From positions 1 through 11,113 of the forward strand of contig JBHHXN010000171.1 in assembly GCA_046757025.1 (NCBI GenBank): a DNA stretch of 11,113 nt. Reading direction: 5' to 3'. This DNA comes from a bacterium (lineage in GTDB: Bacteria; Zhuqueibacterota; Zhuqueibacteria; Oceanimicrobiales; Oceanimicrobiaceae). How positions within the stretch are numbered: position 1 is the first letter of the stretch; every line of letters begins with the position of its first letter. The position numbers and the translations under genes were made by a program. The notes under the pieces are model-generated. The model worked only from the letters and a program-made list of their open reading frames with translations, was not told where the DNA came from and did not search any database. Positions 154 to 11,073 of this stretch are shown one piece after another.

Positions 154-1677
154 ATGGCTGAGACTTCTTTATTAGAATACCTGTTAGAAATTGCACGCGG
201 GGTTTTGTCAGAACAGGATTTGGACCGCATCTTGTCTGCAGCCATGGATGGCGCCATCGAAATCTCCGGCGCGGAACGGGGATTAATTATCCTATTTGAT
301 GAGAGCGGGAAAGTGCGTTTTCAAACCGCACGTAATTTAAATAAAGAAGAACTTGCACAGCCAAAGTACGAGATTAGCCGCACCATCATCGAAAAGGTTA
401 GAACGACTAAGCGCCCACTCTATGTGAAAAACGCCCGCGAGGACCCGGAATTTCAGGCAAGCCAGAGTGTGATCAAACTGAAAATATTGTCGGTGATTTG
501 CCTGCCGTTAATACATGAAGGACGGGTCTTTGGGGAGGTTTACCTGGACAACCGCACGGTTCGGGGAGCCTTTAAGCCAGCAAGCTTTCAGTTTGCGCAA
601 AAGTTTGCCGATTTCATCTCGGTGGCCGCTCATCATGCCCTGGAACGCCTGCAATTAAACAGCCATGTGCATGCGCTTCAGAAAGAGCTTCGAGAGCAGT
701 TTCATTTTGAGGCTATCATTGGGAAGCATCCGGCCATTGTTGAAATATTAGACCTGATTGCACAGATAGCCGATACCGACGCCACCGTGCTTTTGCAGGG
801 AGAAAGTGGCACCGGCAAGGAGCTGATTGCACGCGCGCTGCATTTGAACAGCCGTCGCCGCGACAAACCATTTGTTCCGATAAATTGTGGCGCCCTGCCA
901 GACAACTTGCTGGAGTCTGAGCTTTTTGGACATGTACGGGGGGCTTTCACTGGCGCCACGGCCAATAAAATCGGCTGGTTTGAACGGGCTTATGGCGGGA
1001 CTGTTTTTCTGGATGAAGTGGCAGAAATGTCGCCCGCCATGCAGGTGAAGCTGTTGCGAATTTTACAAACCGGTGAATTCTCGCCGTTGGGAAGCACCGT
1101 CATCCACCAGGGCGATGTGCGCATCGTAGCTGCAACCAATAAGAAATTAGAGCGGGTCATCAAGCAAGGCAAGTTCAGGGAAGACCTTTTTTACCGGTTG
1201 AAAGTGATTGGAATTGAGGTACCTCCCCTGAGAGAACGCAAAAGCGACATTGCCCTTTTAGCCGAGCATTTTATACAGATTTTTGGTCAAAAATACCATA
1301 AAATGAATTTACGTCTTTCCGACAAAGCTAAAGACCAGTTGTACCTGTATGACTTTCCCGGCAATATTCGTGAGCTTGAGAATATTATTCAGCGGGCCAC
1401 CATTTTAGCAAGGGGTGAAGAGATTGAACCGCGCCATTTGCCCGTAAACCTGGCCTCCTGCGATGATGGTTTGTCGGCAGACGGCGAAGCGCTCACTTTT
1501 AAAGCAGCCAAACAGCGCTTAGTGCAAAAGTTTGAACGTGAATTCATAATCGAGCGTTTGATGAAAACCAAAGGCAACATAAGTCGTGCGGCACAGCAGT
1601 CTGGAATGGATGTGAAAAATTTTTATACCAAAATGAAGAAGTATGATATTGATGCAAAGGTATTTAGTGGGGAATGA
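154..1677 (+). CDS. Sigma54-dependent transcriptional activator (bEBP) with GAF, AAA+ and Fis-type HTH domains (NifA/FhlA-like architecture)
   Basis: N-terminal GAF-like region (ISGAERGLIIL...SVICLPL...GEVYLDNR), Walker A GESGTGKE, ESELFGH, intact GAFTGA loop, Walker B FLDEV, FREDLFYRL, FPGNIRELEN, C-terminal HTH GNISRAAQQSGM...FYTKMKKY. Confidence 0.95.
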   Translation: MAETSLLEYLLEIARGVLSEQDLDRILSAAMDGAIEISGAERGLIILFDESGKVRFQTARNLNKEELAQPKYEISRTIIEKVRTTKRPLYVKNAREDPEFQASQSVIKLKILSVICLPLIHEGRVFGEVYLDNRTVRGAFKPASFQFAQKFADFISVAAHHALERLQLNSHVHALQKELREQFHFEAIIGKHPAIVEILDLIAQIADTDATVLLQGESGTGKELIARALHLNSRRRDKPFVPINCGALPDNLLESELFGHVRGAFTGATANKIGWFERAYGGTVFLDEVAEMSPAMQVKLLRILQTGEFSPLGSTVIHQGDVRIVAATNKKLERVIKQGKFREDLFYRLKVIGIEVPPLRERKSDIALLAEHFIQIFGQKYHKMNLRLSDKAKDQLYLYDFPGNIRELENIIQRATILARGEEIEPRHLPVNLASCDDGLSADGEALTFKAAKQRLVQKFEREFIIERLMKTKGNISRAAQQSGMDVKNFYTKMKKYDIDAKVFSGE

Positions 1678-1692
1678 TCCAACCTAATAAAG

Positions 1693-2094
1693 CTATTTAA
1701 TTGTCACAAACTTTTCAGCCCAAATAAGAACTTTCTGTGTAATTTCCAGAGCCTTCAGGTATTCTACTTCAGAAACTTCTTCAAAGAAGCCTGGGTATCG
1801 AGTTTCAACAGCGTATTCACTTAATTCAGCCGCCTCGTCCAATTCCTCCGGCCACGTTATTCCATTTTCTTTGATTAAGGTTATGAGTCTGGCAATATCA
1901 TGAACGAATGGAAAATCCACCCCCTTAAAAAGCAACACAGATTTTATGGCTTTTTCTACCGCCTGTTGTAAATTAAAACAGAGATCCTCCCAAAATATGT
2001 CGTCGGTCTTATCGGTTTGCGCTAACTTGAAATTGCTTTGTGCTCGCGCTAACCATTCTTGTGGAGAAACTAAATGATTATTTCCCGCTGGCAT
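1693..2094 (-). CDS. HEPN domain protein (PF05168/COG2250-like), partner of the adjacent MNT
   Basis: Motifs EWLARA, CFNLQQAVEKAIK, HDI..L, ETRYP; 133 aa. Overlaps the end of the MNT gene by 17 nt and has an AGGGAG SD upstream. No canonical RX4-6H motif. Confidence 0.88.
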   Translation of the reverse strand: MPAGNNHLVSPQEWLARAQSNFKLAQTDKTDDIFWEDLCFNLQQAVEKAIKSVLLFKGVDFPFVHDIARLITLIKENGITWPEELDEAAELSEYAVETRYPGFFEEVSEVEYLKALEITQKVLIWAEKFVTIK

Positions 2095-2401
2095 AAATTT
2101 CTCTCCCTTCTTGAACTGCAGAATTGTATATCAGACCGATTTTATTGCCATATACCTGCAAGTCAGTTTCAGTAGCTACAATGATATCTACTGCACATTG
2201 GAATCCGATCATATGACGATATATCATCTGGGCGGTACGCCGTCGTTGGGTACCGTCGGGAACTATTACGAGAATGTCGAGGTCGCTGTTCGAATCCATT
2301 TCTCCACGCGCGGCAGAACCAAATAAAATAATCTTTTTGGGTTGTACAACCGTAACAATTCTTTGAATTAACCTATCAATTAATTTGGTATCAGGATACA
2401 T
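2078..2401 (-). CDS. Minimal nucleotidyltransferase (MNT), antitoxin-like; start reassigned to ATG at 2401 (107 aa)
   Basis: IILFGSAARGEMDSNSDLDILV is the GSX10DXD motif; also VDIIV and EGREIY. The 39 extra codons up to 2518 look like AT-rich intergenic DNA, and a TATAAT hexamer lies at 2417-2422 on the minus strand just upstream of 2401. Confidence 0.88.
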   Translation of the reverse strand: MYPDTKLIDRLIQRIVTVVQPKKIILFGSAARGEMDSNSDLDILVIVPDGTQRRRTAQMIYRHMIGFQCAVDIIVATETDLQVYGNKIGLIYNSAVQEGREIYASGK

Positions 2402-2576
2402 TTTTCGTGTTTCCAAATTATATTCTATTACTAAAATATGGTTATTTTTCGTCAAAATAAAGTTAAAATTCAGTTCTTCTGTAATTTTTTCTATCCCCAA
2501 AATGTTTTTACATTTCAAAAGATAGAAGGTGCGTTTTCTCCACTTACATGCAAATTCAGTGTATTCGTAGTTTTAT

Positions 2577-2613
2577 TTTGGTAACATTACCAAAGTGCTT
2601 TGGTAATGTTACC
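2577..2613. promoter_or_regulatory. Tandem palindromic protein-binding sites, probable bEBP upstream activator sequence
   Basis: Perfect 16-bp inverted repeat GGTAACATTACCAAAG (2580-2595)/CTTTGGTAATGTTACC (2598-2613). Each arm contains its own palindrome GGTAA-N2-TTACC, with centres 22 bp apart. It lies ~120-150 bp upstream of a sigma54-like promoter. Confidence 0.6.
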
Positions 2614-2728
2614 TCTTTTCTCCTCAAAATAACCTCCCTTATATTCTCAAAGCACTTTTGTCCTTATTTCCTTAAAAACAATTAATTATGCTAACATCTG
2701 GTTAAGCAAATACTTTGATTGTCGTATC

Positions 2729-2745
2729 TGGCACACAAGTTGAAT
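2729..2745 (+). promoter_or_regulatory. Putative sigma54 (-24/-12) promoter
   Basis: TGGCAC-ACAAG-TTGAAT versus consensus TGGCAC-N5-TTGCW: perfect -24 box, correct spacing, GA instead of GC at -12. A bEBP gene and a UAS-like palindrome lie upstream. Confidence 0.6.
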
Positions 2746-2775
2746 GTAATTTCTTCAAACAAGACAAATGGAATA

Positions 2776-3141
2776 ATGCAAAAACCTTATGTGATAATTT
2801 CTGGCCCAACTATCACTTCAGATGAAGAACTGTTTCACGAACTGAATAAATATATGACGACTGTGAAATGCCTGGAGAGTAGTGAGATTGAAACTTTGCT
2901 GGCAACCCACAAAGTTGACATTCTCCTGTTTGAAATAACAACTGATTCAAAAGTCGATTTGAACATTATTAAAAACATTAGAAATAAATTTTCGATGGTT
3001 GAGATAATTTTGATCGATGCGATTGGCGATCGCAATGTCCTTGCCCGCGCCTTTGCTTCAGGCGCCAGAGACGCCTTTCCGATTGCGTATAATCGCGCTT
3101 TGCTTCTGGAAAGAATACAAGCGCTTTTACGGCGGATTTAA
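2776..3141 (+). CDS. Stand-alone atypical (pseudo-)receiver domain protein; start reassigned to ATG 2776 (121 aa)
   Basis: CheY-fold pattern VDILLFEI...IIKNIR...EIILIDA.GD....RAF.SGARD.F...Y...LLLERIQALLRR. The phosphoacceptor Asp position is Glu, and the acidic pair, T/S and KP are replaced. The TTG start at 2719 would lie upstream of the sigma54 box. Confidence 0.8.
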   Translation: MQKPYVIISGPTITSDEELFHELNKYMTTVKCLESSEIETLLATHKVDILLFEITTDSKVDLNIIKNIRNKFSMVEIILIDAIGDRNVLARAFASGARDAFPIAYNRALLLERIQALLRRI

Positions 3142-3199
3142 AACTCTAAATATTCACTATTCGAAAGTAGATGGAACACTGTTTAAATTAACATTAACA

Positions 3200-3289
3200 G
3201 TCATTCTGTAGGAATCTTTTTTTGTGTTTAGAAATAATCCTTAAATATGTTCCATTGCTAGAAATCGACAAGATTCCATCCTGAATGAC
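3200..3289. repeat. REP-like inverted repeat (GTCATTC...GAATGAC type)
   Basis: GTCATTC (3200-3206)/GAATGAC (3283-3289) and GGAATCTT (3211-3218)/AAGATTCC (3270-3277) enclose a 51-nt AT-rich spacer. It shares the GTCATT/AATGAC termini with the other elements. Confidence 0.6.
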
Positions 3290-3358
3290 AAATTTAATTT
3301 GCTTGTGGGAAAAAGCCACCAATCAATCTAACTAAGAAATGTGAGTGATAATTATTTT

Positions 3359-3498
3359 CTGAGTTGAGCGATTTAAATTTGCAAATACACACATAGCGGT
3401 CGATTTGTAAGAGTGTGGGTGTTTACGCTTCAGCGTGTTCCTCCCTCCCTCCCCCCGACACACCGAAATTTCCATCGATAATGAATCGCTCAGTTCAG
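3359..3498 (+). ncRNA. Candidate structured leader RNA or sRNA with a C-rich loop
   Basis: 16-bp closing stem 3359-3374/3483-3498 (three G-U pairs), inner stem 3383-3394/3413-3424 (11 of 12 pairs), and hairpin GUGUU/GACAC (3435-3439/3457-3461) with loop CCUCCCUCCCUCCCCCC. Nearly all deviations are G-U on the + strand. Confidence 0.4.
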
Positions 3499-3536
3499 GT
3501 GTTTATTAATTAAACCAAACTTTGAAGGACGACATG

Positions 3537-4670
3537 ATGAAAGTAAATAAATCTATTTATTGTGGACTAATGCTGTATCTGCTTTTGATCTTGCCAGAGA
3601 ATCTGTTTTCTCAACAAATCACCATAACCTCTGATGATATGCTGAATATGATTGGCTCCGCTCAAATCTTACGGGAAGATACGCGGTTCAGTATTCCGGT
3701 AAATGTTGGTTCACCCGGACCTGCTCAAACGTGGGATTTTCGAACAACAACCCTGGTCAATCCTTTTTTGGTAGTTTTTGAGTATTTAGCGCCGCAGTCA
3801 ACGCTTTCCAGCGCTACCTATCCTGAATCCAACCTGGTTGAGAAGATCTCAGACCCTGAGAGGCCGGGGTTTGAAGCGTACAATTACTTAAAAGTGACGA
3901 ACTCGCATTTTATAGATTTAGGAGATAGTACTAAAATGATCTCACCGATGGATACCTCATTTGTCTATTTTCAAAACGATACCCTTGCCCCGCTGCCACT
4001 GGCCTTTAACAACACCTGGATGAGCACGGAACGTGATACCACGGGTCTTTATCCTGCTACCGCCAATATTTCCATCGATACAACGATAAATGTGGTGGAT
4101 GCCTGGGGTACGGTACGCTTACCCATGGGTGATTTTCAATGCCTGCGATTGCGCCAGGATGTAAAGGTCATCAATCAGACTATCTTCAATGGGTCGATTA
4201 TTTCCACTGGCATTGATACGTATATTCAATACAATTGGCTGGCGAAAGGGATTAGTCTGGTGGCCCGAATCCAAAGCCAGAACGGAGAAACCAATCCGAA
4301 TTTCACGAACGCGCAAGGATTTGGACGGCTCGATTCAATGAGTACCTCTCCTGCAACCGGCGTGGAGCAAGCCGATGATATGCAGGTGCCGGCGCAATTC
4401 GAGCTGTTTCAGAATTATCCCAACCCATTTAATCCCCAAACAACCATTCGTTTCAGGTTGAAAGCATCGTTGGAAGTGACTTTGGAGGTTTACAACATCC
4501 AGGGCCAGTTGGTGCGCTCACTGATTGCCGGAAAACTTAGCGCCGGCAGCCACAGCGTGGTGTGGGGTGGCCGGGATGAGCAGACAAAGCTGGTTCCAAG
4601 CGGTTTGTACATCACCCGCATGCAAGCGGGGGAATTCGTGCAGCATAGTAAAATGCTGCTGATCAAGTGA
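3537..4670 (+). CDS. Secreted protein of unknown function with T9SS type A / FlgD-Ig-like C-terminal sorting domain
   Basis: AAGGA SD (3525-3529) favours ATG 3537 (3534 also possible). Signal peptide ...ILPENLFS|Q. Beta-rich body with QITIT, TWDF and DAWGTVRLPMG motifs. CTD FELFQNYPNPFNPQT...SGLY...KMLLIK. Confidence 0.85.
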   Translation: MKVNKSIYCGLMLYLLLILPENLFSQQITITSDDMLNMIGSAQILREDTRFSIPVNVGSPGPAQTWDFRTTTLVNPFLVVFEYLAPQSTLSSATYPESNLVEKISDPERPGFEAYNYLKVTNSHFIDLGDSTKMISPMDTSFVYFQNDTLAPLPLAFNNTWMSTERDTTGLYPATANISIDTTINVVDAWGTVRLPMGDFQCLRLRQDVKVINQTIFNGSIISTGIDTYIQYNWLAKGISLVARIQSQNGETNPNFTNAQGFGRLDSMSTSPATGVEQADDMQVPAQFELFQNYPNPFNPQTTIRFRLKASLEVTLEVYNIQGQLVRSLIAGKLSAGSHSVVWGGRDEQTKLVPSGLYITRMQAGEFVQHSKMLLIK

Positions 4671-4704
4671 CTATATAGTGCTTGACGGAAAACTGCTGGA
4701 GGCT

Positions 4705-4793
4705 GTCAATGCGAGCGCTTTTCAGCGAAGCAGTTCCCCTCTGTTACACAGGAGATTGCTTCGTCCCGCAAACAACGCGGGACTCGCAATGAC
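4705..4793. repeat. REP-like multi-branched palindromic element, complete copy
   Basis: Terminal inverted repeat GTCAATGCGAG (4705-4715)/CTCGCAATGAC (4783-4793) with 1 mismatch. Inner CGAAGCAGTTCCC/GGAGATTGCTTCG stem, perfect 7-bp GTCCCGC/GCGGGAC hairpin (4763-4783), and CGCT-TTTC-AGCG hairpin. Homologous to 1-60. Confidence 0.8.
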
Positions 4794-4861
4794 CAGGAGG
4801 TACATGAGTTTTCGATTAACCACTATTTTAGAGCGAACCTGAGAAATGGGAAAAAAATCTC

Positions 4862-4990
4862 ATGACTAACACAACACGACTCTTCCTCTCGGCCCTTGTG
4901 ACGGGCACATTTGTTCTTGGCTTGAGCCCTGGGCACGCTTATTTCAACAAGCCCTGCAAACCGCAGACGCGCCGAAATCGCCAGCTTTGA
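4862..4990 (+). pseudogene. 42-codon ORF with signal-peptide-like N-terminus; possible remnant of a secreted-protein gene or a small exported peptide
   Basis: Translates to MTNTTRLFLSALVTGTFVLGLSPGHA-YFNKPCKPQTRRNRQL*, with n/h/c regions typical of a Sec signal peptide. Too short for the ORF track. Confidence 0.3.
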
Positions 4991-5053
4991 CCTGCCAATT
5001 TTACCTGGCTCCACTTCAGTCCAAGGCGGGAAACTAAAAGAGGAAGAAAAGAT

Positions 5054-8000
5054 ATGAGTACTGCTAAGCGAATAATATCGAAAAATTGGATCGCTTCCAC
5101 TACTAATCCAGAACAAAAAACAAACGTATCATTTCTGCACTATGTTGTTTTCACCTGTGTTTATCTCGTACTTATTAGTCCAGTATTCTGGACATACGAT
5201 GTTTTTGCACAGTACGAGGGCTGGGTTCAAAAGGGTCCTTCGACCATCTTTATAATTGAAGATCAGGCGATCACTGGCATTGGAACCCAGATAGCCGTCG
5301 GTGAATCCGGACATGTGATGAAAACAACCGATGGCGGAGAGAACTGGACAAATTTAGTAAGCGGGACGACGACAGATTTGCATGCGATTTCTATTCCTGT
5401 CGGCGATATTGGTTATGTTGTTGGCAACTTGGGTAAAATTATCTGCACGACTAGTGCTGGTATGAATTGGTTCGATCTCAATAGCGGAACAGCAAAGAAT
5501 CTGTACGGCGTTTTTTTTACCGACGATAGTACTGGTACCGCTGTGGGGGAGAATGGCACCATAATCAAGACCACTGACTGGGGAACGACCTGGAATCCAC
5601 AAAACAGCGGTATCAACAAAATTCTCTATGATGTCTATGCAATAGACCAGCAGAAGGCTGTGGCGGTTGGCGAAGGCGGGATTATCCTGCGCACCGAAAA
5701 TGGCGGAGCGGACTGGTCACAACAGGTAAGCGGAACCACGGAAGATCTGATGGCAGTTGACGGTCACGGCGACAATAAATTGATCGTTTCGGGAAATAAA
5801 GGTGTCATATTGCATTCAATTTCCGCCGGAATGACCTGGACGCCTCGCGTAAGCGGAACCCTCGTACACCTGCCCGATGTGATCTTGTTGGATGAACCCT
5901 TCGCTGCTGTCATAGGACATGATGGCACCATTCTCCGAACAAAGGATGGCGGGATCACCTGGGTGCCTCAGGAGAGCGGAACAACCGAAAATCTTTTGTC
6001 CGTTGCCTTTTATGATAAAAACCATGGCAGCGCTGCGGGTGAAAACGGCACCGTACTGTACACAAGAACCGGGGGGAAAACACTGCCAATCATATTTGTC
6101 GATAATTCCAAGCCAAACGGCAACGGTCGTTTTACCAATCCTTTTGATAATTTGGCCGACGCGCTGAATGCAGCGGATTCAACACGCGCGGTGTGGGTCT
6201 CCAAAGGTTCAGGAGTCTATGCGGGCGGAATGACATTGAAGGAGCGGCAAACCGTGCTGGGACAAGGCGTCGATTTGAAATATGGCAACGAGATTCTGAT
6301 TCCTGCTGCAACGGCGCCAATTATTACCAATCAAAATGGAGATGGTGTCAGACTCGGGAAAAAAACAATGCTGGAAGGTTTCCAGATAGATAATTGCAAC
6401 GGCGCAGGAATTTTTGTAGGTCCTGATGTTGTGGATACTGTTCTTGTTGCCAATACAACCATCACCCGTGGAAAAAGAGGAATAGAAATTGACGGCAGTT
6501 CCGGGAAATTAATTTTTTCAAACGTGGACATTGTAAATACGGACGGCCCAAGTTTTCGCCTGTTGGATTCCGGTGGTTTGGGCACAAACAGCGCTGACGT
6601 CACTTTTACCGGCCAAATTACGCAAAGCACGTCTGCGGCAACAGTTGAGATCCAGGATCACCGGGGCACGGTTAACTTCACTGCCGGCTCGACAATCAAC
6701 GCCAGCAACGGCAACGGTTTGCAATTCAACAATGCTGACGGAAAATATTCTTTCATCGGGCTGAGCGTACTTAACAAAGGCCACGGCAGGATCGAAATCA
6801 TCGGCGGTTCGTCTGGCACCTTCACCTTTGACGACTTGACGATTACGGACTCTCGCGACGTGGGCATCCGGATCGATGGCAGCGACGGCGTCTTCGAATT
6901 TGGCAAAGTAAGCATTTCCAACACAGATAGCGCCGCCGTTTCCATTCGCAACTCCAGTGCAGACGTCACCTTCAAGAAGCTGGATATCGACAGCGCACTC
7001 GTCGGTGTTAAAATCGACAGTCTCGCCGGTAAGTTCGCCATCACCGGAGATGGCACACTTGGTTCGGGCGGTAGGATTCAGGATATGATTAAAAGCGGTA
7101 TGACTTTGAACAATGTTGGTATAGCCGCACTCAAAGATATGTTTTATCAGAATTTTGGCGGCAATGCTATAGAAACGTTGACTGTTGAGAATTTAGAGCT
7201 GGAAAATATCAGTGTTACCGGCGCCCAAAATGGAATCTACATTGATAACAAAACAAGAAAACCTGGCACAATTATAATTAATGGCGGAAGTATTAATGAC
7301 ACAGTTAACGACGGCTTATTTGTGCGAAATATGAACTTATTTGCGGACGGTGTCATCTTCGCCGATAGCAAATCTATTCGCGGTGACGCGATGGATTATG
7401 ATTTTAAGGGTGCGACGGAGGCAATAGTAGAGAACTGTAAATTTAAGGAAGTTAACATAAACTCTCTCTTGATCGAATTGAGTGAAAACCCTGGTCTAGT
7501 AGATAGCAGCGAAACGAACATCCTGTCCAACCATAAGAATTCAAATATGAAAGCCGGAAGCGCAACATTGCTGATTGATAACAATATCATGACCGCTCAA
7601 GGCCCTGAAGCCATAAAAGTGCAGGTCGGAGGTGTTGCAACTGCGAACAGTGTGGAAATAACCAATAATACCGTAATTGCTGACAGCGGTAATGGTATTG
7701 TTATACAAACAACCGATTCCAGTTCGGCTTTGGTCACTTTTGCAAACAACGACGTTTCTGCGGCTGCCAACGATTTCGTGCTCGTTCAGGATAGCAGCAG
7801 CACGTTCCAGTTAGCCGGTTTTGCCGGCGGCGATGCAGCGGCGGTGGCGGCGTTCATTCAGGACAACAACGTGGGCACGCCCTCGGTGGCAGTGAACGGC
7901 AGCATCAGCGCGGACCCAACCACGTCGGTTGAAGAATCTGATCCTGCTGTGATTCCGAGTGCCTTTCGTTTGGAGCAGAACTACCCGAACCCGTTCAATC

Positions 8001-8236
8001 CGTCCACCACAATTCAGTTTGACCTGCCGCGACAATCCGGGGTCACGCTGAGCATTTACAACCTCAAAGGGCAGTTGGTGCGCACTTTGGTTGACGGGAA
8101 ATTCACCGCCGGCAGCCACAAAGTGGTTTGGGATGGCCGGGATGAGCGGGCAAAGCTGGTTCCAAGCGGATTGTATATAAGCCAATTGACCGCGGGTGCA
8201 TTTGTTAAACAGCTCAAGATGCTGTTGATCAAATAA
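5054..8236 (+). CDS. Large secreted mosaic protein: YCF48/BNR (Asp-box) beta-propeller + right-handed beta-helix + T9SS/FlgD-type CTD
   Basis: GAGGA SD; long signal peptide ...YDVFA|Q53. Seven BNR-like repeats (KTTDGGENW, TTSAGMNW, KTTDWGTTW, RTENGGADW, HSISAGMTW, RTKDGGITW, YTRTGG) in ~5210-6076. Beta-helix cap IFVDNS...NPFDNLADAL, then G/N/I-rich coils. CTD FRLEQNYPNPFNPST...WDGRD...KMLLIK. Confidence 0.88.
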   Translation: MSTAKRIISKNWIASTTNPEQKTNVSFLHYVVFTCVYLVLISPVFWTYDVFAQYEGWVQKGPSTIFIIEDQAITGIGTQIAVGESGHVMKTTDGGENWTNLVSGTTTDLHAISIPVGDIGYVVGNLGKIICTTSAGMNWFDLNSGTAKNLYGVFFTDDSTGTAVGENGTIIKTTDWGTTWNPQNSGINKILYDVYAIDQQKAVAVGEGGIILRTENGGADWSQQVSGTTEDLMAVDGHGDNKLIVSGNKGVILHSISAGMTWTPRVSGTLVHLPDVILLDEPFAAVIGHDGTILRTKDGGITWVPQESGTTENLLSVAFYDKNHGSAAGENGTVLYTRTGGKTLPIIFVDNSKPNGNGRFTNPFDNLADALNAADSTRAVWVSKGSGVYAGGMTLKERQTVLGQGVDLKYGNEILIPAATAPIITNQNGDGVRLGKKTMLEGFQIDNCNGAGIFVGPDVVDTVLVANTTITRGKRGIEIDGSSGKLIFSNVDIVNTDGPSFRLLDSGGLGTNSADVTFTGQITQSTSAATVEIQDHRGTVNFTAGSTINASNGNGLQFNNADGKYSFIGLSVLNKGHGRIEIIGGSSGTFTFDDLTITDSRDVGIRIDGSDGVFEFGKVSISNTDSAAVSIRNSSADVTFKKLDIDSALVGVKIDSLAGKFAITGDGTLGSGGRIQDMIKSGMTLNNVGIAALKDMFYQNFGGNAIETLTVENLELENISVTGAQNGIYIDNKTRKPGTIIINGGSINDTVNDGLFVRNMNLFADGVIFADSKSIRGDAMDYDFKGATEAIVENCKFKEVNINSLLIELSENPGLVDSSETNILSNHKNSNMKAGSATLLIDNNIMTAQGPEAIKVQVGGVATANSVEITNNTVIADSGNGIVIQTTDSSSALVTFANNDVSAAANDFVLVQDSSSTFQLAGFAGGDAAAVAAFIQDNNVGTPSVAVNGSISADPTTSVEESDPAVIPSAFRLEQNYPNPFNPSTTIQFDLPRQSGVTLSIYNLKGQLVRTLVDGKFTAGSHKVVWDGRDERAKLVPSGLYISQLTAGAFVKQLKMLLIK

Positions 8237-8292: not shown

Positions 8293-9801
8293 GTGGGAAA
8301 AATAAACGTTTCTTTTCACCTGATGAGTCTTCTCATCATAGGATGTCTGGGAAGCTCACTCCTGGCTCAAACGCGTCGTATGCAAGTCAGCCCGGACGTG
8401 CCACGTGTGCTCGATTATCAGGGCATCCTGACCAACCCCGATGGCGAACCTTACAACGGCGCCTTCAATCTTACTTTTACCATTATCAACACAAAGAACG
8501 ATTCGGTGCTATTTACAGAAACCGTGCAGAATCTCGAAGTGACGGATGGACTGGTGCACCACCTCGTTGGCAGTGTTGCCGGAGACCTTGACCCGTTCAT
8601 CTTTCAGAAAGCCACGGCACTGCGGATAAACGTGAACGGCGAGACCCTCTCCCCTGATGTGGTTATTGCGCCCGCACCCGTGGCTTTGGTGGCGCTCTAT
8701 GCCGATTCACTGACGTCGCCTTTGCCACAAGGCTCATTCACCAACGGACTGAGAGTATCCAGTAGTGACACGGCCATCGTCGCATACAGTGCCGCCGGCC
8801 CGGCCATCGTCGGGATTCAAGGCGAGTGGAGCGGAGGCCAGAGCCACATTGAAGGCGGCTCAAACCTTGCGAAGGTAGTTACAGACAATGAGCCTTTCGG
8901 CGCTGTATACTTCAGTAATAGCGGCACCGGCGTTGGCGGCTTCAGCAACACTGGCACAGGTGTTTCTGGCAGCAGTGGCACCGGCACCGGCGTTTCTGGC
9001 GACAGCGGCACTGGCACCGGCATCGGTGGCACTAGCAGCAGTGGTAACGGTGTTTCTGGTGAAAGCTTTAGCGGTAATGGTGTGTATGGAAAAAGTACAA
9101 CTGGCCTGGCGGGCAAGTTCGATGGCAACGTGGAAATCAATGGTGATTTGAATATCAATGGCGGCAAAATCAGAACCGACAGCGACGGCGAGATTTATGC
9201 GCATAGCTTTCATACAGTAAACGATGCTGGCGTCACCACTTCCGGTATCGATACCGATGGCAAGGCAAACTTGAAGTCTGTCACCTCTCCGGAGGGGTTG
9301 ACCGTTCCTGCCGATGGCGGCGGGGAAAATTGGTATTGCAATACCGGGATATTCCTTACGGACAAAGGCAGTTGGAACAGCACGACGGGCGATTTTCACA
9401 CCAATGGGAATTTTGGTGTAAACGGCACCAAGAACGCTGTGGTACTCACCATCAGTTATGGCACACGCAAACTCTATGCAGACGAATCCGCTGAGGTCAG
9501 CTTTTTCGACCGGGGCCGGGGACAACTGGTCAACGGCGAAGTCAGCATCGAGCTCGATCCCATGTTTCTCGAAACCGTCACCATTGACAATGAACATCCC
9601 ATGCTGGTGCAGGTCACCCTCACCGCAGACTGCAATGGGGTGTTTGTCTCAAATCAGACGGCAACGAGCTTCACGGTAAAGGAACTCATGGGCGGCAAAT
9701 CCAGCGCCACTTTCAACTGGGAAGTGGCTGCCAAACGCAAAGGTTACGAGTCCGTGCGCATGGAAGAATTTGAATCTTTAACCACAGCGAACAGGAGGTG
9801 A
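8293..9801 (+). CDS. Secreted trimeric fibre/adhesin-like protein (YQG N-terminal domain, Gly-rich repeats, phage tail-fibre-like C-terminal domain); no T9SS CTD
   Basis: GAGGAGG SD (8281-8287) with GTG start; signal peptide ...SSLLA|Q. N-domain VPRVLDYQGILTNPDG...LTFTI...VNGE.L.P...APVAL. Six 10-aa GxGVxG repeats, then a GKFDGNVEINGDL stalk motif. C-domain GTKNAV...YGTRKLYA.ES.E..F.D.G...LDP.FLETV...F.WEV.AKRKGYE. Confidence 0.75.
   Translation: MGKINVSFHLMSLLIIGCLGSSLLAQTRRMQVSPDVPRVLDYQGILTNPDGEPYNGAFNLTFTIINTKNDSVLFTETVQNLEVTDGLVHHLVGSVAGDLDPFIFQKATALRINVNGETLSPDVVIAPAPVALVALYADSLTSPLPQGSFTNGLRVSSSDTAIVAYSAAGPAIVGIQGEWSGGQSHIEGGSNLAKVVTDNEPFGAVYFSNSGTGVGGFSNTGTGVSGSSGTGTGVSGDSGTGTGIGGTSSSGNGVSGESFSGNGVYGKSTTGLAGKFDGNVEINGDLNINGGKIRTDSDGEIYAHSFHTVNDAGVTTSGIDTDGKANLKSVTSPEGLTVPADGGGENWYCNTGIFLTDKGSWNSTTGDFHTNGNFGVNGTKNAVVLTISYGTRKLYADESAEVSFFDRGRGQLVNGEVSIELDPMFLETVTIDNEHPMLVQVTLTADCNGVFVSNQTATSFTVKELMGGKSSATFNWEVAAKRKGYESVRMEEFESLTTANRR
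8914..9093 (+). repeat. Six tandem 30-bp / 10-aa repeats (S-x-x-G-[TN]-G-[VI]-x-G-x) in the fibre gene
   Basis: SNSGTGVGGF, SNTGTGVSGS, SGTGTGVSGD, SGTGTGIGGT, SSSGNGVSGE, SFSGNGVYGK. DNA units recur, e.g. GGCACCGGCGTT and GTTTCTGG. Confidence 0.9.
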
Positions 9802-9806
9802 AGATC

Positions 9807-10376
9807 GTGCCTATCCGACAAAACTTTTCGACCAGAATTATATTGATGTTACTTTTTGCATTGAGCGTTGGCTCGCATCGATTATATAGCCAAGCAAGTT
9901 TAAATTATCAAATTAAGGCTTCTACCATCAGCAGCGGGGCAGAACAAAAACAAACAACCGCAAGCTGGCAAGCCACGAGTTCAGTGGGCCAATGCACTTC
10001 CAGTCCGCAGTTAAAAGGCACGCAATATTTCATGCAATCCGGATTTAACCCTATTGTCAAGGGACTGCAGATGGTCGTCACAGTCAATACCCCAGAAGCG
10101 GAAACAAAACCGACGGTCTATCGCATGTACCAGAATTATCCCAATCCATTCAATCCGACCACGACCATTCAATTCGATCTGCCAAATCGATCAAAGGTAA
10201 CCCTCAAGATTTATAACGTATTGGGAGCCGAAGTGGCCACATTAATTGACAAAGAGATGGATGCTGGAGAATACAAGTTTGATTTTGATGCCCACGGTTT
10301 CCCCAGTGGGGTGTTTTTTTTTCGGATTCAGGCCGAGGGATTTGTAAAATCGAGGAAACTTTTGCTATTAAAATGA
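9807..10376 (+). CDS. Small T9SS-CTD protein (signal peptide + ~60-aa Ser/Thr/Gln-rich segment + CTD), putative adaptor for the upstream fibre; start reassigned to GTG 9807
   Basis: AGGAGG (9793-9798), formed by the fibre's last codons, overlaps GTG 9798 but is 8 nt from the in-frame GTG 9807. Signal peptide ...HRLYS|Q. CTD YQNYPNPFNPTT...SGVFFFRI...KLLLLK. Confidence 0.82.
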   Translation: MPIRQNFSTRIILMLLFALSVGSHRLYSQASLNYQIKASTISSGAEQKQTTASWQATSSVGQCTSSPQLKGTQYFMQSGFNPIVKGLQMVVTVNTPEAETKPTVYRMYQNYPNPFNPTTTIQFDLPNRSKVTLKIYNVLGAEVATLIDKEMDAGEYKFDFDAHGFPSGVFFFRIQAEGFVKSRKLLLLK

Positions 10377-10389
10377 AAGGAAAAATTTC

Positions 10390-11073
10390 ATGAGAAAAAT
10401 AACTGCTTGTTTAATTGCGCTCTCTACAATCATTGTTTTTAACTGCAAAAATGCCAAATCCGGAAACAGTGCTTCGTCAAACCTGAAGCGCTATGGCCTG
10501 AAAGAGGGTTACATCCAGTATTCCATCAAAGGCGACATGATGAGTGGCACCCAGGAAATCTGCTTCGACCGTTACGGTGCCAGAGAGGTGGAGATTAAAA
10601 ATATGGAAGTAAAAATTATGGGCATGAGTCAGAAAACCAAAACCGCCACGTACACCGATTTTAGTGAAGGTGGTACAATTTATACTGTGGACTATTCAAC
10701 CGATCCGCCGACCGGCACCAAAACCGTCAACCCGATGATCAAGTCGTTCGAAGGCAAAGACTTGCAGGAAGTCGGTAAGGATATGCTGGTGCAGATGGGT
10801 GGCAGGATAATCGGTAAAGGGAAAGTGCTTGGCAAGGAATGTGATATTTGGGAAGTCAAAAATATGGGCACAAAAGTCTGGGTCTGGAATTGGATAACCC
10901 TGAAGACCGAGATCCTGATGGGTATGAAAATGATAATTGAAGCCACGAAAATTTTGGAGAAATGTGACAAAAAGAAGCTGGTGAAGCCAAATATCAAGTA
11001 TAAAGACATGAGCAATGTGATGAAAAGTATGAAAGGTCTGGACGCTTTGAAAAAGCGATTCCAGAAAAAATGA
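10390..11073 (+). CDS. Lipoprotein of unknown function (beta-rich, possibly DUF4412/LolA-like fold)
   Basis: AAAGGA SD; lipoprotein signal MRKITACLIALSTIIVFN-C19. Motifs KRY..K.G.I.Y, FDRYGARE and G...VLGKEC..W...WVW..ITLK. The fold assignment is inference. Confidence 0.7.
   Translation: MRKITACLIALSTIIVFNCKNAKSGNSASSNLKRYGLKEGYIQYSIKGDMMSGTQEICFDRYGAREVEIKNMEVKIMGMSQKTKTATYTDFSEGGTIYTVDYSTDPPTGTKTVNPMIKSFEGKDLQEVGKDMLVQMGGRIIGKGKVLGKECDIWEVKNMGTKVWVWNWITLKTEILMGMKMIIEATKILEKCDKKKLVKPNIKYKDMSNVMKSMKGLDALKKRFQKK

Follow-up and report, generated by a model that had tools for sequence, protein, structure and literature searches.

A three-unit module in a small protein with a T9SS sorting domain is predicted to bind the N-terminal domains of a putatively trimeric phage-like fibre

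The window, namely the whole 11,113-nucleotide stretch of DNA analysed here, carries near its downstream end two adjacent genes, which encode a fibre-like protein and a small secreted protein, hereafter the adaptor (Table 1). The start of the adaptor gene overlaps the stop codon of the 502-residue fibre ORF by 4 nt. The adaptor N-terminus is basic-hydrophobic and, judged by eye, ends at a conserved A-x-A/Q junction; read from the sequence, the mature adaptor would likely begin at Q32. A 60-residue segment forms the mature N-terminus of this 192-residue ORF, and is connected by a linker of ~20 residues to a C-terminal sorting domain (CTD) of a type IX secretion system (T9SS). The CTD scores above both curated cut-offs, with 40 bits against PF18962 (cut-off 27) and 38.7 bits against TIGR04183 (cut-off 23), and a profile search of the same genome found SprA, PorV-family proteins and PorU, all over cut-off. 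Downstream of the adaptor, both here (10390-11073, forward strand) and at locus L001, lies a 227-residue lipoprotein-like ORF of no clear family. Two more T9SS CTD proteins are encoded upstream in the same direction (3522-8236, forward strand), one of 382 residues with a faint DUF3108-like match and the other of 1060 residues with a Ycf48/BNR propeller and beta-helix-like repeats. A pair of HEPN and minimal nucleotidyltransferase genes on the reverse strand (1693-2518) resembles an ordinary toxin-antitoxin-like module.

Table 1. Features of the fibre and adaptor genes, in window coordinates
Feature	Position	Strand	Basis or remark
Fibre-like partner, 502 aa, secreted, without CTD	8293..9801	+	ORF list; no Pfam family
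Fibre Ig-like N-terminal domain (NTD), residues 26-147, related to Bdellovibrio MAT NTD	8368..8733	+	NF053851
L-D-Y-Q-G-I-L-T-N-P strand, fibre residues 40-49, predicted docking edge	8410..8439	+	
Small secreted adaptor, 192 aa from GTG	9798..10376	+	ORF list
Alternative adaptor start (ATG), giving 176 aa	9846		relative P0002 begins at residue 17
Likely Sec signal peptide of adaptor	9798..9890	+	read from sequence, and homologues with the module after A-x-A/Q
Unit 1: Y6-x-I8, G16-A17 turn at end	9891..9950	+	GG in most homologues
Unit 2: W26-x-A28, then G33-Q34	9951..10010	+	G33 and Q34 conserved in 98% and 93%
Unit 3: Y46-x-M48, then near-invariant G51 and F52	10011..10070	+	predicted to pair antiparallel with residues 44-49 of the fibre
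T9SS type A CTD, adaptor residues 114-189	10137..10364	+	PF18962, TIGR04183

In the fibre-like protein, residues 273-496 match the PHROG tail families 6616 and 33972. Its NTD scores 31.6-36.6 bits against NF053851, the model of the Bdellovibrio mosaic adhesive trimer (MAT) fibres, below the cut-off of 60, and is by this test a relative rather than a member of that family. Among homologous fibres, 83 of 84 NTDs match NF053851 at E ≤0.001, and the Y, Q, G and L of the docking strand are conserved in 95-100% of the 84. AlphaFold2 predicted the NTD monomer as a beta-sandwich, with a mean pLDDT of 80.5 and 82 of 140 residues at pLDDT of at least 90. Structural similarity search revealed only generic Ig-like matches, the best of which (VIA) has a Z-score of 7.4 and an rmsd of 2.5 over 81 aligned residues; Foldseek gave no match at E ≤0.001, and the module, the NTD and the fibre body have no sequence match in the PDB. 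These missing matches are no proof of a new fold. The S74 chaperone and collagen repeats are hallmarks of trimers, and one or the other is present in 29 of the 83 fibre bodies scanned (24 S74, 5 collagen), out of 93 before short or masked ones were set aside. Pfam gave neither S74 nor collagen for the fibre in the window. Five fibre paralogues in the same genome differ in their bodies and ends and share a constant NTD. Across the phylum, the NTD was found in 107 of 167 genomes vs 69 of 167 for the module, two counts that come from different profiles and thresholds. At one further locus (L261:589-1074, G000:C58), a fibre-type NTD is joined to a membrane segment of the CcmD family (TIGR04391, 41.6 bits, cut-off 24). 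The gene comes directly after ccmC in an operon for cytochrome c maturation, on a contig with no fibre body or module.

A preliminary description of this DNA had divided the 60-residue segment into three exact 20-residue pseudo-repeats. The aromatic residues Y6, W26 and Y46 stand as claimed, 20 residues apart in the confirmed frame, and so does the hydrophobic residue at +2 of each unit (I8, A28 and M48), which recurs in 98, 92 and 69% of homologues. Small residues at +4/+5 (AS, SS and SG) hold in the window, but at +4 of unit 1 in only 24% of homologues. Exactness applies to the spacing of the window copy and not to identity, as the pairs of units share 3, 2 and 1 of 20 residues; we thus rejected an exact tandem-repeat protein, given units 1-3/20 identical and a period of 19-20. 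None of 20,000 shuffles of the window segment reproduced the described pattern, which was itself set down after the fact. By BLOSUM self-similarity, the segment reaches p = 0.029 at the chosen lag vs 0.34 with any lag from 12 to 25, and therefore the window sequence alone is only suggestive.

A 13-sequence module profile matched 117 places in 69 of 167 genomes of the phylum. Homologues carry the source labels KSB1 or Calditrichaeota, which makes a KSB1-type lineage likely for the genome of the window. We took 100 of them as homologue loci, giving 101 sequences with the window, and left out 17 (four from the same genome, one already in the set, one inside another locus, one at a contig edge, one further weak match and the nine weakest). 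Single-sequence searches gave close relatives only, and in one of them five of nine matches were unrelated repeats and were dropped. The docking positions are spaced 19/19 in 46 of the 101 sequences, 19/20 in 45 and 20/20 in two, with other spacings or gaps in eight. F, W or Y occupies positions 6, 26 and 46 in 67, 69 and 60% of them, and all three positions in 40 of 101, whereas the best-conserved residues, G16, G17, G33, Q34, G51 and F52, had escaped the preliminary description. A profile-lag test without gaps did not reach significance (its best lag, 19, was matched by 172 of 2000 shuffles), probably because two spacings are mixed. Anchored comparison of the unit profiles over 88 dereplicated sequences gave an in-register peak for all three pairs, with scores of -0.2, -1.9 and -2.5 vs -9.9, -5.1 and -7.5 for the next-best registers; hhalign between the module thirds gave only 22-40% probability over 8-11 columns. 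For a blind test, a DNA pattern fixing units 2 and 3 only retrieved at least 120 metagenome stretches, of which the 80 listed ones, 79 distinct proteins and 77 with enough upstream sequence, were analysed. Among these matches listed, unit 1 (aromatic-x-hydrophobic) lies at -19 in 60 of 77 and at -20 in nine of 77, compared to at most 19 of 77 in other windows of three offsets. Altogether, the three-fold aromatic periodicity is conserved in the 101 sequences, in the unit profiles and in the blind test (69/77), and chance was rejected as its source: the three-unit repeat is genuine, with the consensus S-x-S-x-x-[YF]-x-hydrophobic and a period of 19-20. One query against plasmids gave no match to the module, and ESM Atlas gave only leads under 0.9. 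The strict module motif had 0 matches in viral contigs, so that, by this one strict pattern, a phage origin of the module is unsupported.

The module and fibre genes are linked. A same-strand fibre NTD gene lies within 6 kb in 85 of 100 module loci, and in 50 of the 55 with long flanks, leaving five of 55 without one. As a background from the same genome, only six of 182 CTD domains lie that near an NTD, three of the six being in this window. Four of the five fibre genes of this genome share a contig with a module gene, and the fifth is on a contig of 3.1 kb. The sorting domain is divided unequally, with a CTD in 88 of 96 complete module ORFs vs 0 of 91 complete fibre ORFs, and no module-fibre fusion occurs among 102 module and 93 fibre ORFs. 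Distances among fibres are correlated with those among modules (rho 0.54). Co-variation of cognate pairs also holds inside single genomes, where none of 3000 permutations was as good (43 pairs in 16 multi-cassette genomes). Co-variation and linkage could also stem from cassettes that move as a unit, and kin are not independent.

The preliminary description had proposed three beta-strands, each complementing one NTD of a homotrimeric fibre. A complex of three NTDs (residues 26-147) with one module was predicted with scores of 0.86, 0.86 and 0.87 in three runs, compared to 0.00 for the best of three controls. The mark for a pass is reached by 116 of 157 solved vs two of 215 mismatched pairs, a calibration that is rough for a 3:1 job with our own alignments, and by the tool's own warning a pass can also come from close cousins and side-by-side chains. 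As neither profile matches a PDB sequence and no close fold was found, a score that merely echoes known structures is less likely. Agreement among the runs covers at least 97% of contacts, with a partner pLDDT of at least 85 and an NTD trimer pLDDT of 89. In the model, all three NTD copies dock via the same surface (residues 15-24, 26, 28-29, ~60-64 and 85-105) onto module residues 1-60, forming 276-307 contacts with an expected error below 8 Å for all copies. The best-resolved pairs join fibre residues 44-49 with module residues 46-49 in opposite directions, which we read as a predicted antiparallel ladder at the YQGxL motif. The modelled Y46 lies beside T47, V114, L119 and Y54, and M48 beside L46, V88, I112 and L119. 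As residue pairs are given for unit 3 and one copy only, we infer one unit per subunit for units 1 and 2.

Predicted alone from the same alignment by another predictor, the module has a pLDDT of 51 and a pTM of 0.21, with short low-confidence strands at residues 8-14, 17-22, 27-32, 46-48 and 51-56. At this low confidence, each unit is probably not a bare strand but a hairpin made of a turn and the strand that docks. Conservation is higher at the 30 interface positions shared by the copies than at the remaining 73 (0.65 vs 0.53, p = 0.005), a difference to which the buried core contributes. Inter-chain covariation by mutual information is weak, with nine of the top 20 pairs on interface columns, where ~6 are expected. 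The NTD, confidently predicted as a monomer, may not need a donated strand. The docked strand may either complete a partial fold of the NTD or extend a sheet that is already whole. The model and the conserved periodicity together support 1:3 docking by strand addition at the YQGxL edge as a prediction, with two corrections to the original proposal, a period of 19-20 and a unit that is probably a hairpin.

The same module also stands before other C-termini. At locus L074 of the phylum, a PEP-CTERM end takes the place of the CTD. Rule-based sorting of the 79 metagenome proteins gave, among the matches listed, 62 CPR-like proteins (~240-310 residues), 10 tiny proteins with a YLP-type tail, which we take to be a Chloroflexota-type motif, four dockerin-like and three others; none of the 79 carries a CTD, in a sample biased by the search pattern. 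Pfam confirms the dockerin of L160, not that of L153 or L188. A same-strand MAT-like NTD gene is present in 13 of the 79 loci among the matches listed, mostly short ones, including three of 10 YLP-tail, two of four dockerin-like and seven of 62 CPR-like loci. At CPR-like loci of at least 6 kb it is present in five of 25, and these low counts make the CPR link weaker.

The module matches positions 28-78 of NF058579, the model of the predicted CPR tip pilin PamT, in 11 of 13 module sequences (best E 3.3e-06). Membership of the window protein in PamT was rejected, as it scores 28.8 of 240 bits over residues 14-86 only and its C-terminus is a T9SS CTD. Three CPR-like proteins score 32.7-51.1 of 240 bits against the PamT model, below the cut-off, that of L155 over the whole model. 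Eight loci (L155, L156, L162, L168, L179, L185, L203 and L216) are pam-like CPR operons with pilin-like and chaperone-like genes, and their PamT-like genes open with three clear units. In L185 and L203, MAT-like fibre genes lie 2-3 kb downstream of the PamT-like gene; the nearest Atlas clusters of L203 are Minisyncoccota and Saccharimonadota. L185 also has an exact-looking tandem duplication of the pilin-like/chaperone-like pair (1054-4789), possibly an assembly artefact. The preprint PMC13278184 independently reports a tail fibre-like gene as a consistent neighbour of the pam operon, within windows of 30 kb.

We consider it probable, though well short of settled, that the adaptor is a lasting 1:3 anchor, whose module binds the fibre trimer and whose CTD fastens the CTD-less fibre to the surface of the cell. 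Judging from their signal-like N-termini, fibre and adaptor would both cross the inner membrane by Sec. One adaptor chain would then cap the base of the fibre trimer, where in the model each aromatic-x-hydrophobic strand pairs antiparallel with a YQGxL strand and packs in the adjoining groove. PorV and SprA would read the CTD and likely pull the complex out, or else the adaptor might capture the fibre outside. In Bacteroidota, PorU removes the CTD of T9SS cargo and attaches the protein to the surface; by analogy, PorU would remove the adaptor CTD and fix the ~70-residue module to the surface. Other lineages would fuse the same module to other anchors. A monomer that caps a homotrimeric fibre has a counterpart in the gp38 adhesin of T-even and S16 phages, which caps the gp37 trimer at its distal tip through a helical domain and binds the receptor. 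The adaptor differs from gp38 in its predicted place at the base, as an anchor.

The 3:1 model and the linkage data would also fit a module that bound 1:3 solely to pilot export or to template assembly. Once the CTD is cut, the complex would be set free or the adaptor would fall away, and the fibres would be shed or held otherwise; T9SS cargo can be freed after CTD removal. We regard this as unlikely, since fusions of the module to PEP-CTERM, dockerin and pilin-like domains also occur, and these domains are attachment devices and not export tags, and since an interface of so many contacts over all 60 residues looks permanent. A spurious model pass is a more improbable account: the module would be a small domain that folds by itself or binds a barrel, its target would be unrelated, and the two genes would co-travel as a surface-protein cassette. 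The scores of 0.86 vs 0.00 for the controls, three equivalent sites matched to three units, and linkage at 85 of 100 loci vs a background of six of 182 all speak against it, as does the recurrence of the linkage with non-T9SS anchors (L074, L153, L154, L160, L182 and L183). In its favour, inter-chain covariation is weak, a low monomer pLDDT is no proof of disorder, and 55 of 62 CPR-like copies, among the matches listed, lack a fibre NTD gene at the locus retrieved.

Stoichiometry leaves room for one more arrangement, in which binding is 3:3 or mixed, with one adaptor to each NTD and a single small sheet built from the three units. The models cover 3:1 only, with residue pairs for one unit and one copy, and the units have diverged to GG, GQ and GF ends, all of which would suit it. 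We nevertheless hold it to be very improbable, because one chain engages all three copies via the same surface at an expected error below 8 Å, and three internal repeats would be needless at 3:3.

The lasting-anchor reading can be compared with several known systems. Bdellovibrio MAT fibres (Caulton et al. 2024, PMC10769870; NF053851), as described in the available part of that source, share with the present fibres a related NTD, phage-like bodies, and the occurrence of S74 and non-S74 forms. They differ in the NTD, which in the window reaches 36.6 of 60 bits, and the available text of PMC10769870 names no partner; nor do the MAT passages of PMC13689555 name an anchor. PamT, predicted to be the tip pilin of Pam pili in CPR bacteria, shares the N-terminal three-unit segment, whereas the window protein has a T9SS CTD in place of the pilin domain. 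In the available text of PMC13278184, PamT is a lone truncated Ig domain, and neither the N-terminal segment nor the fibre is assigned a function. The adaptor resembles donor-strand complementation, as known from chaperone-usher and Pam pili (in part after the same source), in that a strand of one chain is predicted to dock on an Ig-like domain of another. The adaptor differs from donor-strand pili in using one chain with three pseudo-repeats for three identical acceptors around a three-fold axis, with no head-to-tail polymer, and no chaperone or usher gene was seen among the window ORFs scanned. Compared to T9SS type A cargo (Lauber et al. 2024, PMC10994853, as far as available), the adaptor likewise has a CTD over cut-off and SprA, PorV and PorU in its genome. 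It differs in a passenger of only ~70 residues, the functional cargo being a non-covalently bound, CTD-less trimer. We found no case of such piggy-back export by the T9SS in the open-access text consulted, including PMC9251779.

Three elements of this reading are each known already, namely the addition of a strand to an Ig fold, sorting by the T9SS, and MAT fibres. The open-access text consulted contained no description of a 1:3 pseudo-symmetric adaptor with anchor swapping. The attachment of MAT-type fibres to cells is described as an open question in PMC10769870, and so is the engagement of the host by the Pam pilus in PMC13278184; a 55-60-residue peptide predicted to bind the NTD trimer of a fibre 1:3 bears on both questions. 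This reading would also add a class of hitch-hiking T9SS cargo overlooked by searches for CTDs, account for a two-gene cassette common in uncultured bacteria, and provide a short tag by which trimeric proteins could be displayed. More tentatively, and with rather less than even confidence, we suggest that the module might be a universal plug for MAT-like trimeric fibres, fused to the attachment device of each lineage (T9SS CTD, PEP-CTERM, dockerin, short hydrophobic tail or CPR Pam tip pilin). The T9SS might then export a CTD-less homotrimer by piggy-back, and PamT might be a socket for swappable host-binding fibres on the tip of the CPR pilus.

The organisation of the cassette varies among the homologue loci. 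At L119 (5986-6258) and L120 (5899-6255), module-only ORFs of 91-119 codons contain cysteines and lack a CTD, and neither locus has a fibre gene within 6 kb. At L043 (G135:C23:19234-31410), four fibre and two module genes are interleaved in 12 kb as a cassette array. In addition, the module proteins of L004, L013, L018, L023 and other loci are 400-900 residues long and carry cohesin or Ig domains before the CTD (P0021 and P0023), which suggests scaffold-like adaptors.
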